Origin: Octopus sinensis
Lineage: Eukaryota
DNA length: 64,000 nt
Direction: 5' to 3'
NCBI RefSeq assembly: GCF_006345805.1
Contig: NW_021832224.1
Coordinates: 62,001-126,000, forward strand
This document shows positions 1,600 to 34,396 of the stretch, piece by piece. The translations under genes were made by a program, and so were the position numbers. Under the pieces are notes generated by a model. The model saw only the letters and a list, made by a program, of their open reading frames with translations, did no database searches and had not been told where the DNA came from. Each line of letters begins with the position of its first letter. The stretch's first letter is position 1.

Positions 1600-3300
1600 G
1601 TTTATATTGGCAGTATCAATTGGTTATTCCAATGCAATCAGATAGTATAAATTCCATTCAAATCATATTAAACGATAAGAAACAGTTAAATAAACATCAC
1701 TTCTTGAAGCTTCGAAATCGTTTCTGGAAATATCCCGTCCGACTGACATCACCACAACTCATAATTCGACGAAGCCCGACAGTCTCCGGATGACTAATAT
1801 CACTATAACAATCCAAAACAGAATTGCTAGCAAATTATGGGCCAAATTTAACTCATCCGTGTCACATTGGAATCCGTTCACCACGTCAAAAATATTGCCA
1901 GAAGATGCAGACAAACCAATACAGTTCCTCAACTGCCCTGTCAGTTATAGAGACATACGTGAATAATATTCTCCCGAAGAAAGCCAAGAGCCTGGACGAA
2001 CTTGTCTGATTTCCTGCCCTTAAAATAGAGAGGGAATCTAAAAACGACACAACAAACAATACGTAATCTCCTCGCCGCCAACGTTTTGAGACAGTGAGGA
2101 CATTGAGGGGTGGAAGTGGAGGACATATGGATAGGACACATTGAATATGACCCCCAATATGTGCAACAGCAGCACCATACTCCCATAAACAGAGGAAGCA
2201 GTCTCTAAAAGAGTAAGACGCTGATTTACTCCAATCGAGACTGGCAACATGTTCAATGTCAAAATTGCATATTCTGTTCTAAGCAATGTATACACACAAC
2301 AACTTGAAATATCAAGGAAAGTGTCGACACCAGGCTGAACTGCCGCCATTTTAAAAGTCTGAGGAGACGGGAATATCTTTCCTTCCTCTCACCCAGATTG
2401 AGATTGACTAACTTGATGATGGCATCCACTTGATTGGAAATGAGGTCGTGGAGTATCATTTCTCCAATACCCACAACAAAGTACCTCTCGACTCACACAG
2501 CCGGGACATGTCCGACAGAGTAGTCAACTGGAACTTGAAGGAATTGCGAACTGTTTTCAACTTGACTCTCAACTGCCCCACTTTGTGTCGGAGTTGTTCG
2601 ACTTGGGAGTTCTACAGTGAGAAAGACAGCTTACGAATGGGACTTGTTTAATCAGTGTGTTCAAATTAGTGCAGTGCTCATTCAATCGACTCCTCGTATC
2701 ACTCAGAGACCGAGAATAGGCCTGCAGACTGGGAAATGAAGGCCTAACATCAACCGCAAAGCTGAATTGGCACAAAATGACCATTTCAATTTGTTCATGT
2801 CGGTTTTACAGTAAAAAGTAGACTTTCCGTGCTCTGTTTGGTCCATATCGGTCGAAACCAAAAACATGTTTCCTCTCAGACTCAAAACAAGTGAATTGGA
2901 GGCAGGCCCGACTTTATTCTGGCAAAAATGAGGACAGTGAATACATTTTTGAAATAAATCAGGTTTTTGAGGTCGACCTCCCAGCGAATTAAAGGAATGG
3001 GCTCAGATTGGTCTGATCTTCCCCACAACATCAACTGGAAAACTGTGGTTACTCAGAACGTAAAACCACGGGAAGCCAACGACTTTTGGTCAAAAAGTGA
3101 CTTTTGTTTGGGACGAATATCCCACGTGAGGCCACAGTTGATCTTGAAATCAGGACTTTGTAAATAGACTATAAACACATATGTAAATAAAACTACCATA
3201 TTCTGATTCATTGCTGATTATATTGAGAGTGAAATGACATGAGGACACGACTTGAAGGTCTCCAACGAGGAGGTTACTGGCTACCACTTTGTCAAGATGA
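1600..3300 (+). mobile_element. Highly degenerate L1/Tx1-like LINE relic
   Basis: Intronless, stop-riddled, GC-richer block; GVVRLGSSTVRKTAYEWDL resembles the xSAYADD region and GMGSDWSDLPHNINWKTV...W...LGR resembles the post-RT region. Boundaries approximate. Confidence 0.4.
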
Positions 3301-26559: not shown

Positions 26560-26849
26560 ACCTAATTGCCGACATGCTTTAAATTTCTTGCAATATTAAA
26601 ATTTAAATCTATTTTAATTATAAATACAAAATAAATATTATTTTAGAAGATCTAAAGGATCTTAAAGTATGAATTTATTCGTTTTTAAATGAAAAAAAAG
26701 CAGGAAAGATTAAATAAGGGGGTGTACTTCGCTTGCATGAATTGGATATCATGGGGGATTATAATTAATTTGCTTACCTTGGTCTTTTGGTAAATTAAAA
26801 TTAATTGAAATAAAAAACTTAGATAAAATAATATTGAAATAAAAACACC

Positions 26850-27110
26850 CCCGGTTGGGAACCGCTGTCCTAGAAGAATGCCTGTTTCGTTCGGTCCCTA
26901 AATTAAATTTAGCACAACAATGGACATTCCAGCATGACAAAGACCCAAAATATAAGTCAAAAATGACTGTTGAATGGTTACTAAAGAACAAAATAAATGT
27001 TTTGGAATGGCCAAGTCAATCACCAGACCTCAATCCAATCGAACATTCATGGAAAATTTTAAAAATGAAAGTTGGTTTAAGGAAACCAAAATTGAAATAT
27101 TTTTCATAGT
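26850..27110 (+). mobile_element. Tc1 transposase fragment
   Basis: FQHDKDPKY...LEWPSQSPDLNPIEHSW. Confidence 0.85.
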
Positions 27111-27464
27111 TATTTTGTGGATAAACTGAAAATATTTCTTGTAAACCACATATAATCGTTTTTATTGAATACTTTTAAACAAAGTACTGAAAAACCCAAA
27201 AGAAAATATTAATTTTATGCCAAAAATGGAGTTAAAAATATATCAGAAGAAATTTCATTTGACATTTCCAATCATCTTATAAATGCAAAACTAATATCTA
27301 ATTATGCATCCAAGAACAAACAGCTCAGATTACCTGCTATATAGAAATAAAAGCAATTTATATCACTACAAATAACCATTTCTAAAAATTGGTAAATTAA
27401 AGGAATTATATTAAAATGATTAATCGTGTTAGTAAAGAAACCAAGTAAAATATTAGTTTAGTGA

Positions 27465-28146
27465 TTATAGTGAATTGAATTTTTTTGTTGGCATATTAAA
27501 CCCTTTTGGAACTTCATCAAAAGTCTATTAAATAAATACACGATCAGAACTTTATCAGTAAGATTGTTAATGCCTTGAATGAAAGAAATCCGTTTGAGTT
27601 GTTTTTCGTTGTGTTTCCTTATTGATAAAATATTTCTTCTAAAAATTGTAAAACGTTTTTGTTTCTCTTCTTCAGAATAGTGGCGGTCTATAATCGACAT
27701 AATAAAAAAACCATATTTTTTTTGGAATTTGATAAACAGGTCAGTAATGGTGGCTTTCTCTATGACACTTTCAAAGTTCATCTAATTTGAAAATTATAAT
27801 TACAAAATCAACAGAATCGACATCTGAGGTAATCTCAATATGTTTAAAACAGCATAATCCAAGATTTGCCGCAGCATTGCTTATTTTTATAAATTTCATG
27901 TTTTCAATGAATATCGGGTAATGAAATTTTTCGGAATTTTTATATGATTTATCTATTAAGTAAAAAAATACGATGAACTGAATTTATCCTTAAAAGAATT
28001 CCAGTCATGTTTCATTTCACACTAAAAATTGAGTTAATATTTATATTTCTTTTTACCGAGCTGTAGATAGGAATTTTGTTATTCGTGGTCGACAAAATCC
28101 AAAAGCTTAGAACTGGTAATAAAAATATTATATAGGTCGATGACAT
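27465..28146 (-). CDS. Secreted protein with two tandem I29 (cathepsin propeptide) inhibitor-like domains and no protease domain
   Basis: Signal-like MSSTYIIFLLPVLSFWILS; domain 1 DWNSFKDKF|NKSY...YPIFIENMKFI; domain 2 LFIKFQKKY|DRHYSEEEKQKRFTIFRRNILSIRKHN...GINNLTDK|TFDEV (ERFNIN and GxNxFxD-like); 5 GT-AG introns; TAA soon after domain 2. Confidence 0.75.
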
Positions 28147-28399: not shown

Positions 28400-28924
28400 A
28401 AAGTCTATAGAAAAAATTATCTGTTTAAGATTCGTCGAGAAAATGCATTCAAACACTTGTGATGAAAAAGAAACTAGAAAGCATGGTGGTGGAGATCTGT
28501 CTGTCAAATGGCAAACCAATTATGGGAAAACCCCTCGGATGAAACAAATGGAAAAATTATGGATGACTTGGAGAATGACAGTGATAGTGCGTTAGTGGAC
28601 AGTTCTTTCAAAAAAGAAAAAAATTTACAGTCAATGAATTTGTTAATTTCTTATTTTTAAAACGGGGGAAATGCTATTAGACTTCAAATCCGATCTGTCG
28701 TTCATATGGCTCAAGAAAAATTTATTACGCGACTTTGGACTTAGTTAATAGAGTAACATTGTTTATTTTGTCATGAGAGTGAAACCGTTAGAGAAACAAT
28801 GAAAATTATGTCAGCCAAATATGAGGATGTTTGTTAAAGATGATGCAGGACAATCTACTGAAATCCGTCCTTATAGGGGAAAATATTTTGCAGATGACAA
28901 AAAAGAGTGGATAAATTACATTTA
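28400..28924 (+). mobile_element. Ginger/KRBA-like relic that is the target of the RTE insertion (continues at 31969-32100)
   Basis: DDKKEWINYI*KAV|FD matches DNKKEWINHIRKVMF at ~21910; ttatttttaaaacgggggaaatgctattagactt recurs inverted at ~40610-40650. Confidence 0.55.
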
Positions 28925-31900
28925 AAAGGCCGTGATCTCAATTCGTCCAGGTCGTCCCCCGTCTTTAGGTTTTTCCTCACTCGATTTAGGTCTTTGTTTA
29001 AGGCAGTTGGAAGTGTCGATCTAGGTCGTCCGCGGAAGGGTATGTCGCATCTGTCGAAGTAGTCTTCCATCGCTTTGTTAGCGGGTGCGTCCGGGTTCAT
29101 TCTTAGTACATGCCCGAATAGCCTCCACCGGGCATCTACCACATCCCCGCTGATGCAGGAGCACATACACTTGTTGTAGATACCATTGGTTGATATTCGA
29201 CGTGGCCACTCCATTCCGAGTAAGTTTCTTAGTTGCCTTCTATGGAATGAGTCCAGTTTCAGTAGATCGTTGAAGGAACATCCCCATGTCCCAGCGTTGT
29301 ACAGCAGGATCGGTTTTACAAACGCGTTGTAGCGCCTGCATCTGATGCCAACTCCAAGTCCTTTAGCTCTTAGCCATCCTTTCTTCAGTTTCGCCATTGC
29401 CGAATTCGCCAGTGTTTTCCTCCTTAGTACATCTTCAGCGTCTCCCAGTAGGGATCCAAGCTTATTAGTGTGTCTCCATCTTTCATGGGTAGTATCATCT
29501 TCTCTTTTGATTTCCGTAACCTCAGTTTTGTCCACATTTACGCTGAGGACCCATTTCCCAAGCTCCATAGGTGCATTTTCTAGTAGGTGTTGGAGTGCGG
29601 TCACGTCCCGTGATACGAAATCCACGTCATCGGCATAAGATGCCTCTTGGAGGTTGCGGAGTGCAGATTCAAGGTAGATGGTGAATAGTAGGGGGGAGAG
29701 GGAGTCACCCTGGGGTGTCCCAGTCGTTGTTTTGAAACTGCGGGAAGTTGCTCCTTCTGTCCTCACAGATAGTCTTGTGTTCGCAAGTAGTAGTCTGATT
29801 ATCCTAACCGATGATTCATCCAGTATTTGCTCAAGCACATTCATCAGTTTCTGTCTGTTTATTGAGTCGAAGGCTCTGGAGAGATCTATTCCCAGCACGG
29901 TCGTTGTGCTCTTGAATCTTTGGTGCGTTGCGCAGCGCCATCTGTGGCTCCATACAATGTCTGCCGTAGATCTCCCATCTCGGAACCCACTTTGACTCGG
30001 TGATAGGTATTGATCCGCCACACCCTTTATCCGCCTTAGTGCGACGTTTGTCAGCACCTTGCGTATCGAATTCAGGAGTATTATCGGGCGGAGATTTTCT
30101 ACTGGTCCTTTTGGTTTGTTCGGTTTTTGTATGGGTATTAGTAATCCATTTCCAAGTCCCAGATCGGTATTAGTTTCGAAAATTTCATTTAGGGTTTTTG
30201 CAATTGCATCGCTGAGTTTTTTTGGCCCATATTTTAGGAGCTCGGGGCTTATGTTGTCCGGCCCAGCACTCTTGTTGTTCCTCAGTTTATTTATCGCTAG
30301 TTCCACCTCTTCCGCTGTGATTGGGATTTTTAACGCTTTTGCATCTCCCTGGAAACAAGGAAAGTCCGTGTTTTCTTTATTCAGCAAGGTTTCGAAGTGT
30401 CGTGCGATCAGCTCTGCTTTTTCTTTCGGATTACCCACGAATTTTCCATCTTTGTCTTTAATGTGGAGGATGTTTTGTCCTTTCTTAGTAGTCCGCAGTA
30501 GTCGTAGGGCCGCATACATCCTTGAATTGTCTTTTAGGCATTCCACATCTTTTAGTAGGGATGTAATGATTTCTCGTGAGTATTTTCGGTTCATCTTTTG
30601 GATTTTGCACTTTAGTTCCCTTTGTTGGATGTTAAGCTCCTTTTTCTTAATCTCGTCTGACGTGTTTGCGGCTTTTAGCCGTACCTCTCTGCGATGCTTT
30701 GCCATATCTGGCACGTTCGGGTGGTGATCCAGTTTTAGGGCACAATGATTTCGGACTCCAAGGCATATACTGGCCGCCTTGGAAATTACCCGCTTTGTTT
30801 GGTCCCACCGGGTTCGTAATGATAGTTCTGGTGTGGATTTCTCCATAAGAGTCTCAATTTGCTTGTGATAATTGTCTTTACAAGTGGGCTCCAGCCACAA
30901 TTTCTCTGTCTGGAAGTGTATATTTGGCCTTTGTCTCGCCTTCTTCGCGTTTTCGGTGTATTTTTCCCCAGTCAGATGCTTCTTTACGCAGAGTTTTGCG
31001 GTGACCATCCTGTGGTCGCTGTCGGTTGTTGTCCCCTGGTAGGAACGTGCATCGGTTAGCAGGTGTTTATCGGACTTGCGGCAAATAATGTAGTCGATTT
31101 GGTTATATATGTTTACGGTCTCCCCGACCGAGTTTTTCCTTTGTCCGTGCCAGGTCGTCTTGTGGCGTGCTGAGTGCGTAAAGGCCGTGTTGCACAGGAA
31201 GAGGCTATTTGCCTCACAGAAATTCACCAGAGAGGCTCCAGCTGCATTTCTACTTCCGCGCCCGTGTCTTCCGATAGAGGATTCTTCGGGCCCCTTTCGC
31301 TTTCCAGCCTTTGCATTCAAATCTCCCGCAACAAAGACAAGGGACGAAGAGGCATTGTTAGAGTATGTGCTTGATAGTTCTGAGTAGAATTCCTCGAGCT
31401 CACCAGGATTCTTGGCTACTCGTCCACAGTGTGGTGCGTAGACGTTAATGACAGTTAATAGGCTCTTGGACGGGCATAGTTCATTCAGTTTGACTTGTAG
31501 AACACATATTCGGTCGTTGACTTGCCAATAGCGATGTATTTTTTTGGAGTAATCCACGTGCAGGGCAAATCCCATGCCGTAGTGCTTGCATTCGGCTGGG
31601 AAGAGAATCAGTCGGTAATTGTTCCATGTCTCATCGCGTCCATTTACGATTTTCGTTTCTTGTAGGCAGCCGATAGCTATTTTGTATTTCTCCAGATCGT
31701 CACAAAGTACTTTCCTTGTCCAATCTTTCGATATCCCACGTACGTTGAACGTCATTAGCCTGAGTTCTCGGTTGTATAATGAGTGTTTTTCAGACATTTT
31801 TTCTATACAGAGGGACGTCACCACCTCAACCAAAATAGAGATCACTCGCATACGACAGAGGAAAATGGAAAAAACTAACCTTAAATATCGTTACATTGAG

Positions 31901-31968
31901 TGTTGCACATGCGGGGCTATTAACATTATGGCTTTCGTGAAAGTGCTATAATAATAATAAAGGCCGTG
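28925..31968. mobile_element. RTE-clade non-LTR retrotransposon (APE endonuclease + RT) with 5' inversion, (TAA)4 tail and 10-bp TSD
   Basis: Minus-strand ORF with GDLN, QIDYI, SDH (APE) and QGDSLSP, YADD (RT); true C-terminus and tail on the plus strand 31838-31960; aaaggccgtg at 28925-28934 and 31959-31968. Confidence 0.93.
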
Positions 31969-32254
31969 TTTGATACAATCAAATGACTCATTCAGCCATT
32001 TTGCTTTTTTTGTATGTGTTAGTCCGTTTCAGAGATATCGAAAAATCGTCGGTCTGAAGAATTAAAAAACTCCTGCAAGACCATTTGTAAGTCTCAAAAC
32101 AAAGATAAATCCAAAGAGCATAGCAATCCCCTTCAAGTTTATCACGGAGAAATATAGCCGTGTTTGTTTTATTACTTTTGAACTAATATTTATCTAACAT
32201 AAATAAAATATCTAACAAAGTTTTATAGAAAAAGTTAAAACACAAGATAATTAA

Positions 32255-34396
32255 CTAAAGACAGAGCATCTCGACCTTTTTCTGTGATGCCTCATCACCA
32301 TATTGATTCTATACATAATAAAAACAAAAACAACCTCAAACTTACGCCAAAATCGGTACAAAACCCTGCGCTGTTCCTTTACATATTTGAGGGTCATAAA
32401 AGCACGAGAATAAACATCACGTGTCATAAGTACTGCCTTATTGTCCCCTTCCTCCTTCAAAGACAACTCAAACTTGGCATATGCGAGCCAAACCTACAAA
32501 ATTTCGACAATCCAAACTTTAAAGTGGTTGGTTTTTTCGAGGAGGAGGTCGAATAATTGTCTGACCTTCTCATTATTGTTCTGAGATATCTCATAGTCAA
32601 TACACGCCTTCCACACCACGTCAGGAAAGTCCATTCTCGGCTGCTCGATTGCCAACGAGAAAATAGATCTCACTCTCTCGACTTCCTCCAAGACAATCTC
32701 CAATTCTGCAAACTTGGTCCATGTGGAAGATCTCTCCGGGTTGAGAAGCAGCCATTTCTGGTATAATTTCCTACACCTCTCGACTTGTCCTAATTGTATT
32801 TCAATATCAATGTATTCTCTGAATAATTTATCCTTGGGACACTTCCCAATGGCATTCCCCTGCCAGTCATCACCACACACTAACCAACACCAGTCGTGCC
32901 TCCCCCAGTTCGTGACGCCTTATCAAAAACTTTGCATAAAATATCCACATTTTTGCGAATGTAAACTTGCCGTGGGGAATCAAATCGAGACATAATTTAT
33001 AAATTTGACGGGTCCTCTCCAAATCTCCGGCCACAAGTTCTTCATAAAAGGCATAGTTAATCCACAAATATATATAACGACGCCAATATCGTTTGCCCTG
33101 CCAATAATGCAATCACTGACCTGAATTGGGGGAATATTGGCAATAGCCCGTTCATAGACCTCCCTTATGTCATTCGGACGTCCCCCAGCCTCCGTCAACT
33201 TGACCAAATCAAACCAGGCGTCGTAGTCGTGGGGGTCACTCTTGATGGCCTGTTCATACAAGGACTGTCTCTTTCCACATATCATAGTCTCCATCGACGC
33301 CCTCGTTCCGTACTTCTTCTCCAAAATAGCACTCAGTCGATATATCTCACCACACTCCTCCTCCGGCAGAGTGTCCACTGCATATTTGTAGATCACACGT
33401 GCCCGTTCGTGCTACCAATCACCCAGACAGCCCACCTCTCGCTGTCGTTCCTCAAATCGCCCAAAAGAGGCCAGAAGACGGGGACTCATGTAGTCCTCGA
33501 AGTATATCACTCCTCGTTCATAAATATGACGACTCTTCCCTATATTTCCTGCATTCTCTTCAAATCTGGCATATCTGATCCAATTGTCCACATTGTTGTG
33601 CACATGGATATATCTCTCGTATATTTTCCTGGCTCGGCCGTGTTCTTTACATCGAACTTCAAAATTGATGTACGAATTCCACGCCTGTTCGTGTGGCTCG
33701 AAGGCCATCCACCGCTCAAAGACCTGCCGACAGCCTAAATTGAAGACCAAAATATAAACCAGCATAATTTTTGAGTTTTTCCTCCATATAGACATACTTG
33801 TACCATATTTGGTTGGCTCGGGGTAGAAGGGACACTGCTCTGTCTAACAGATTTCGGGCATGCTGGATTTGTTTGTATCTAAAATGAGCAATTGGGGGGA
33901 ATACCTCATTTCTAGTTCGATATATTTAATCCAGATTGGAATAGACCGATGTTCCACGTCCAGTGCCCTCTCCCACACAGAACGAGCTCTTCTAATGAGG
34001 TGGAAAGTCAACCTCTGCAATTCCTGTTGGTCGTCCTCCCATTTGGCGTATTTTATCCAATTTGACATGTTCGAACGGTTCTTTCGAATGTCGTCTTCAA
34101 ACATCTACTCGTTTGGTAGAACAAGGCTGACCTTCCTCTGACGGAATCGAAAGTCCAGTAATTCGTCCATGTCGGTTATCTTTTGAGCCGGGGGCTATGA
34201 ATTAGTATAATCATGTTTTACGGCTTGGATGATCTCAAATTCTCTTTCTTTGGCTACTCGGATTAGCTGTTCTGCGGTGATTTGGAGAGGTGCTGGTGTT
34301 TTGTCTTTGACCTTGGAATTATTATATTTTGATTTGAACTTTTGCTGCTTTTGGTAGTCTGGCAACCATAACTCCATCTTCTGTCATTCGTTTCAT
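32255..34396 (-). CDS. CRNKL1: Crooked neck / Clf1 / SYF3 spliceosomal HAT-repeat protein, C-terminally short
   Basis: LPKAAK|[82 protein letters not shown]; 11 GT-AG introns of 23-28 nt. Confidence 0.96.

Follow-up and report, generated by a model that had tools for sequence, protein, structure and literature searches.

Twin priming, in which each of the two target DNA ends starts a copy of a single RNA, is known chiefly from mammalian L1; twin-primed, 5′-inverted insertions of human L1 were reportedly described by Ostertag and Kazazian in 2001. Bov-B and RTE-1 are LINEs of the RTE clade, whose members are not known to carry a C-terminal cysteine-histidine finger or RNase H domain. The signature of L1 twin priming is set out in passages of PMC2912911, where matches are commoner at the outer than at the inner junction of L1 inversions, and sections of PMC12016303 give the inverted share of human L1 insertions as 18.4% (germline) and 21.9% (somatic), with arms that overlap in 42% of germline cases (median 12 bp). 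PMC4245944 ties 5′ inversions to L1 in human cells, bar one Nimb-2 insert, and makes them dependent on both the LINE and the host. Passages of PMC4476161 describe twin-primed snRNA chimeras made by L1, whereas those given for L2 and RTE arose by template switching only; in PMC5389967 and PMC2718515 twin priming occurs in the reference lists only. Our literature search on 5′ inversions of non-L1 and RTE elements returned nothing beyond Nimb-2 and the snap-back products of R2, and an earlier report is possible.

The insertion analyzed here occupies positions 28925-31968 of a 64,000-nucleotide stretch of the Octopus sinensis assembly GCF_006345805.1 (contig NW_021832224.1, positions 62,001 to 126,000, forward strand), hereafter the window, to which all coordinates refer. 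Human L1 5′ inversions resemble it in the duplication around the unit, the forward 3′ arm with its tail, the inverted 5′ arm, the short outer match and the small arm overlap, and resemble its family in a rate of roughly one in five. In contrast to human L1, the window element is single-ORF, lacks ORF1 and poly(A) and resides in an invertebrate host; it has 121 nt in forward and 2907 nt in inverted orientation, where the medians in germline L1 are 571 and 751 bp (PMC12016303), and its inverted arm reaches the 5′ end. The Nimb-2_DR insert in chicken DT40 cells (PMC4245944) shares with the window insertion the 5′ inversion of a non-L1 LINE and the link to duplications of at least 10 bp, but was one engineered event in a foreign host, whereas here natural insertions are concerned, 3 of 16 being inverted. 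The 5′ snap-back junctions of R2 proteins also join target to antisense element sequence, often after full-length cDNA, yet they are primed on cDNA rather than RNA and come from a site-specific R2 in human cells (passages of PMC11371274).

One exact 10-bp duplication, AAAGGCCGTG, encloses the whole unit at 28925-28934 and 31959-31968 (plus strand), and the outer breakpoint coincides with the end of the duplication. The inverted arm (28932-31838, minus strand) corresponds to family positions 1-2933 at 97% identity, measured on the natural, colinear full-length copy L002 (3049 nt) as ruler. The forward arm (31838-31960, plus strand) corresponds to family positions 2926-3048 and comprises the last 33 codons, the stop codon at 31938-31940, a very short 3′ UTR and TAA repeats at 31949-31960, the fourth of which shares 2 nt with the right duplication. 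The arms thereby adjoin in element coordinates to within 8 nt, and these 8 nt, at the inner junction (31838-31845, plus strand), are common to both, so that GTGATCTC at 28932-28939 and GAGATCAC at 31838-31845 form an 8-bp inverted repeat. A sequence-only reading of the window had proposed that the minus-strand ORF breaks off at about 28935 and continues, with its TAA tail, on the plus strand at 31838-31960. All of these coordinates hold, the plus-strand frame from 31839 reading RSLAYDRGKWKKL...WLS*, and the 8-nt overlap and flanking 10-bp duplication which it described were recovered in the sequence as well. The last 3 nt of the left duplication (28932-28934), which are at the same time the first 3 nt of the inverted arm, are indeed complementary to the element RNA at the inversion point, a match of at least 3 nt at a random element position being expected by chance in 1.9% of cases. 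At the inner junction, 1 nt is shared exactly, or 4 of 5 imperfectly; the family's first bases vary between copies. This geometry was read from assembled contig sequence.

Two further insertions that arose independently set the family 5′ end: L002-L004, which an 11-bp duplication directly adjoins at this end, and L070. None of the 11 candidates for the first 439 nt, every one of which was scored, reaches further. Because the 5′ end is fixed in this way and no candidate is longer, the inverted arm extends to base 1 of the element. The 8-nt overlap is duplicated 3′-region sequence, since other full-length copies start only at 31838; these bases are foreign to the normal 5′ end and therefore arose with the inversion. 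An inverted repeat already present between the 5′ end and the 3′ region was rejected, as the other copies start at 31838 without it.

Comparison with the rest of the family identifies the rearranged copy. In the genome to which the window belongs (G000), 78 matches were obtained by DNA search, with 40 of 175 candidates scored. The junction word occurs with ORF and tail on one strand at 16 of 21 loci; of the remaining five, four align straight across the joint and one stops short of the 3′ end. The same colinear joint, with window positions 28932 and 31846 joined from opposite strands, is found in contigs of runs X1 and X2 (run X4 was left out for too little cover), and homologous proteins of other organisms have as their C-terminal end the motif DL..LR.LA.DR..W encoded by the tail of the window copy. 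As the other copies run from ORF to tail on one strand, the window copy is the rearranged one and its tail belongs to its ORF, in keeping with the colinearity assumed in the sequence-only reading, which the junction word carries at 16 of 21 loci and alignment at four more. Two further candidates were discarded: a tail derived from a different element is ruled out by the colinear copies together with the C-terminal motif of the homologues, and a re-mobilized inverted master copy by the absence of the window junction from all other copies and by the common flanks of the three copies of a sister inversion.

The inverted arm carries a single APE-RT ORF (28935-31800, minus strand; ATG at 31800) which runs for 968 codons without a stop and ends about 32 codons short of its natural stop codon. 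It contains an apurinic-type endonuclease domain at 31003-31755 (minus strand, aa 16-266; Pfam Exo_endo_phos, E 2e-07) and a reverse transcriptase domain at 29512-30120 (minus strand, aa 561-763; RVT_1, E 1.8e-30). Among the copies examined, a nearly full frame without stops is found in the window copy alone, and to this extent the nearly whole, still open ORF of the earlier description stands; however, its C-terminus is lost, and so are 24 nt (8 codons) just upstream of YADD, an in-frame deletion at 29648/29649 (minus strand) that is private to the window copy, the missing codons being present in 7 of 7 other copies covering the place. Divergence from the column majority amounts to 22 of 2889 sites (0.76%), the lowest among eight copies longer than 1.4 kb (1.1-1.8% in the others), and the insertion is accordingly young, as had been suggested, but only in relative terms. 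The copy is recent but dead, not functional, because its tail and its ORF lie on opposite strands, the C-terminal end is missing and so are 8 codons beside YADD. Its 18 private substitutions divide into 10 non-synonymous and 8 synonymous changes, and some of them were therefore probably inherited from an active lineage. Among the contigs of run X1, the allele without the 24 nt has a residual depth of 53, compared with 43-47 for the unique flanks, which suggests that the window copy is present in this read set; X1 may be the source sample, and would then not be independent of the individual.

On the basis of its anatomy the element appears to be a 3.05-kb single-ORF LINE, which we label RTE-like because no named RTE protein was returned among the protein matches. 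It has one ORF with APE endonuclease and reverse transcriptase, without ORF1, and the ATG lies 38 nt from the family 5′ end. TAA repeats occur in all tail-bearing copies displayed, and target duplications measure 10 bp in the window and 11, 12, 13, 13, 9, 8 and 7 bp in L002, L013, L028, L029, L067, L059 and L007, respectively, while no clear duplication was found in several other copies. Neither a Pfam scan of 27 members nor their last 75 residues revealed a C-terminal cysteine-histidine finger or RNase H. Weak matches to DUF6451, a domain which we take to be linked to RTE, occur in 4 of the 27 and are only a hint. The RTE clade is characterized by a single APE-RT ORF and no ORF1 (PMC13295347), by a microsatellite-like 3′ end instead of poly(A) (PMC6007223) and by duplications of the target that span 7-15 bp (PMC6007223, citing Ichiyanagi and Okada 2008). 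With RTE-clade LINEs the window element thus has in common one APE-RT ORF of ~1000 aa, very short UTRs, a trinucleotide-repeat tail and duplications of 7-13 bp mostly starting with A (parts of PMC13295347 and PMC6007223), but it falls into an unnamed subgroup. The closest proteins are about 30 unnamed sequences of 970-1060 aa and 35-43% identity, one cluster of them from the jellyfish Sanderia; human L1 ORF2p matches at only 69 bits, none of the L1-clade features (ORF1, poly(A) tail, 1275-aa ORF2) was found in the element, and a search of the ESM Atlas gave generic reverse transcriptase clusters only. P0171, a family member of 36% identity, is listed under the name of an octopus species and could derive from a co-sequenced parasite.

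The insertion was received by an older decayed repeat, weakly integrase-like, whose parts lie at 28400-28924 and 31969-32080 (plus strand) and whose family gave 43 matches in the DNA search. Three paralogs (L092, L106 and L108) have left- and right-flank matches in the same order as the window, spaced 155-305 nt further apart; the other 13 of 16 paralogs have no right-flank match above shuffled background. The sequence-only reading had held that removal of the unit restores a continuous integrase-like relic. The order of the flanks is kept in the paralogs, but the integrase label is weak (zf-H2C2 in one natural paralog piece, E 0.033, below cut-off), and stops and deletions interrupt the relic. 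The empty-site form is likewise documented in part: three X1 contigs depart from the window at 28934 and run on into right-flank-like sequence, in agreement with an empty form in paralogs, but no empty allele of the window locus itself was found in the assembly.

Inversion has occurred in this family group more than once. Copy L069 (contig C12762) has family positions 18-2070 inverted and 2765-3048 forward; its outer junction has AGA in common with the sequence after the tail, its duplication is short and uncertain (by eye, 4 nt match exactly, or 7 of 8 if one mismatch is allowed), and at its inner junction there is no match and 694 nt are missing. Copy L059 (contig C12433), from a sister subfamily of about 75% identity, has 1934-2432 inverted and 2432-3047 forward within an 8-bp duplication that ends in a 2-nt match (read by eye). 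The L059 inner junction was assembled at three places on two contigs with common flanks and 93-96% identity, and these three junctions are one old event, duplicated later. When 28 tail-bearing loci were grouped by their flanks, 16 events were obtained, of which 3 are inverted (19%, 95% interval 4-46%); leaving aside the window copy, by which the family was ascertained, the count is 2 of 15 (13%, 2-40%), and in the close subfamily alone 2 of 12. This census is a sample, since the DNA searches scored only part of the candidates (40 of 175, 40 of 78 and 40 of 83), and it omits three short SINE-like loci and the loci without a tail end (L006/L070, L015, L017-L021, L025-L027, L060-L066, L068 and L073-L084). 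A search for hidden short inversions at the other 5′ junctions found none in the 28 loci, with best scores of 7-10. Inversion thus recurs in this family group, at a rate compatible with the 18-22% of human L1, and toward the genome-wide count proposed in the sequence-only reading this sample contributes two further independent inverted insertions, L069 and L059, among the 16 events.

Several other arrangements were noted in the family. A 270-nt element with a common head containing a GTTCGAA (B-box-like) word is found at L057:4714-4987, L056:4773-5029 and L051:1330-1501; it ends in the last 60 nt of the RTE-like element followed by a TAA tail, and its 3′ flanks differ at the three loci, so that it is likely a SINE partner of the RTE-like element. 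ARAGORN at a relaxed threshold made only weak tRNA-like calls in it, and no duplication was established. At L086:3677-4681 (contig C9068), 1 kb of inserted sequence with an 8-bp duplication (family position 2028-2035) splits a family copy; a copy on contig C10089 is interrupted at the same position, though its 5′ flank matches a different insertion. In run X3 of organism B, 14,832 contigs fall on window 28835-32007 with a summed depth of 1e5-7e5 over the element, as against about 40 over the neighboring gene, which hints at a huge expansion or expression of a close relative in organism B, summed contig depth not being equal to copy number. The joints 31835 to 30077 and 31835 to 28222 are also listed for X3, their kind not being given.

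Taken from its product, the window insertion was probably made during integration by twin priming. The endonuclease would nick the bottom strand, and the T-rich end would prime on the TAA tail; the top strand would be cut 10 nt away at a time when the first cDNA was only about 120 nt long, its end (...GTG) would pair with CAC in the RNA, at the position to which the first polymerase had advanced, and this second primer would be extended over 2.9 kb to the RNA 5′ end. The two cDNA ends would then be joined over the 1-nt exact (4-of-5 imperfect) match, leaving 8 nt duplicated. We favor twin priming, as the sequence-only reading did, because it explains the outer match, the overlap and the common duplication in one step, and it is supported by the colinear family, the enclosing duplication, the 3-nt outer match, the adjoining arms and the two further inverted insertions. 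Against it stand a perfect complement of the 10-nt overhang in the RNA that remained unused, where a pairing-driven model predicts otherwise, and an inverted arm that stops at the full-length 5′ end, as in many R2 snap-back products (passages of PMC11371274); moreover, the 3-nt match has a chance background of 1.9%, the L069 duplication is short and uncertain, and the census is small and includes an ascertained copy. A predicted RNA fold of the last 260 nt placed the used priming site within a stem, which is uninformative.

The main rival is a snap-back of the cDNA with subsequent repair, from which the same product is possible: a full-length first strand would fold its 3′ end back near the tail and copy the last 120 nt, and the 2.9-kb loop would be cut and joined to the left target end. 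Such a course, which we consider unlikely, would account for an inverted arm that ends at the family 5′ end in the window and 17 nt short of it in L069, as well as for the 4-of-5 match at the inner junction, and the unused 10-nt site would pose no problem because no pairing with RNA is needed; target joined to antisense sequence by snap-back after full-length cDNA has been reported for R2 proteins in human cells (PMC11371274). However, it requires extra cutting steps and does not directly explain the outer matches of 3, 3 and 2 nt, nor does it sit well with the L069 inner junction, which has no match and lacks 694 nt, or with L059, whose inverted arm stops at 1934. The 8-bp inverted repeat that bounds the flipped part could also be taken to mean that an ordinary full-length insertion was inverted later by recombination or repair, and the 18 private substitutions and the 24-nt deletion tell that time has elapsed. 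Yet this repeat is absent from the family 5′ end and so was not pre-existing, the outer breakpoint is the duplication end in 3 of 3 events and no forward 5′ stub is seen, while two separate insertions in opposite orientation would neither adjoin to within 8 nt in element coordinates nor share one duplication, which makes either course very improbable. Much the same holds for an assembly artefact. The junctions were read from assembled contigs, and the contig seemingly stems from a minor co-assembled organism, but a 10-bp duplication together with a correctly placed TAA tail would not result from an artefact, fold-back chimeras produce inverted duplications, unlike what is seen here, the L059 inner junction was assembled three times at 93-96% identity, and the private deletion allele is found in X1 at about single-copy depth.

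In addition to the two copies that flank the unit, a third AAAGGCCGTG, absent from the sequence-only reading, lies within the element at 31180. Together with the next 2 target bases it makes up a 12-mer (31180-31191, plus strand) which is kept in L002, L005 and L069 and was not used for priming. The whole 10-nt top-strand overhang has its perfect complement in the RNA at position 649-658, 2.3 kb upstream of the used site, with a pairing energy of about -17 kcal/mol, compared with -4.6 at the used site (RNA parameters, a rough guide), and the inverted arm passes unbroken through it. On that strand, such a 12-mer is expected by chance with a probability of 0.0025 in each 22-nt target window, which comes to about 4% for all 16 events, or 9% when either strand is allowed, and the feature was noticed post hoc; complementarity to the target is not supported as a rule of the family, the longest match in the other 15 events being no more than 10 nt. 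If the 12-mer is due to chance, second priming took place next to the first-strand polymerase and not at the best-pairing site; in L1, both breakpoints fall within 20 bp in 132 of 287 inversions (sections of PMC12016303). If it is not, the RNA may have helped to open the target. The full proposal, that an ORF1-less RTE-like LINE of a parasitic invertebrate twin-primes at an L1-like rate and that a 12-nt stretch of its own RNA paired with the target top strand and pried the duplex open, seems to us distinctly unlikely; if true, second priming could start as early as about 120 nt into the first strand, at the place of the first polymerase. Its milder half, an L1-like rate in an RTE-like family with the priming site set by proximity and not by pairing strength, is quite conceivable, and we lean only slightly against it.

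The window holds a crooked-neck (CRNKL1) gene at 32335-34317 (minus strand) whose nine candidate introns (starts chosen by eye) measure 21-27 nt and which shows only 48-64% identity to the listed homologues. A second crooked-neck gene, on the very large contig C2, has about 2 kb between two exons, and all matches to the element family lie on small contigs. Because of the tiny introns, the second crooked-neck gene and the confinement of the family to small contigs, the window is likely to come from a second, compact-genome animal with tiny introns that was co-assembled in G000. Our best guess from the intron size is a dicyemid-like parasite; in Dicyema japonicum, introns average 38 bp, GC content is 36.7% and LINE copies are numerous (parts of PMC6736024). 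A co-assembled origin bears on every finding from these small contigs. Ku-domain matches were found on three small contigs (L112, L113 and L116 on C11397, C12460 and C8459) and on large contigs twice more, which fits two organisms in G000. Host loss of end-joining is not supported as a cause of the inversions, given these Ku genes on small contigs, one of which (C11397) also bears a family copy. Elsewhere in the window are a fragment of a DDE_3 (Tc1/mariner-type) transposase at 26843-27106 (plus strand, E 1.4e-07) and an open frame with a cathepsin propeptide inhibitor domain I29 at 27461-27781 (minus strand, E 1.5e-08).

What is described here is a known mechanism in a clade and host for which we found no printed report; new are the family-level rate and one odd, testable feature, and the advance is moderate because twin priming as such is not new and the events are few. 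If roughly one in six natural insertions of this family is inverted, ORF1p, poly(A) and mammalian repair would all be dispensable for the process, and early second-strand cleavage with 10-bp overhangs would be sufficient. The window copy constitutes a natural experiment in which a perfect 10-bp site was skipped for a 3-bp site beside the first-strand polymerase, making the choice between proximity and pairing testable.
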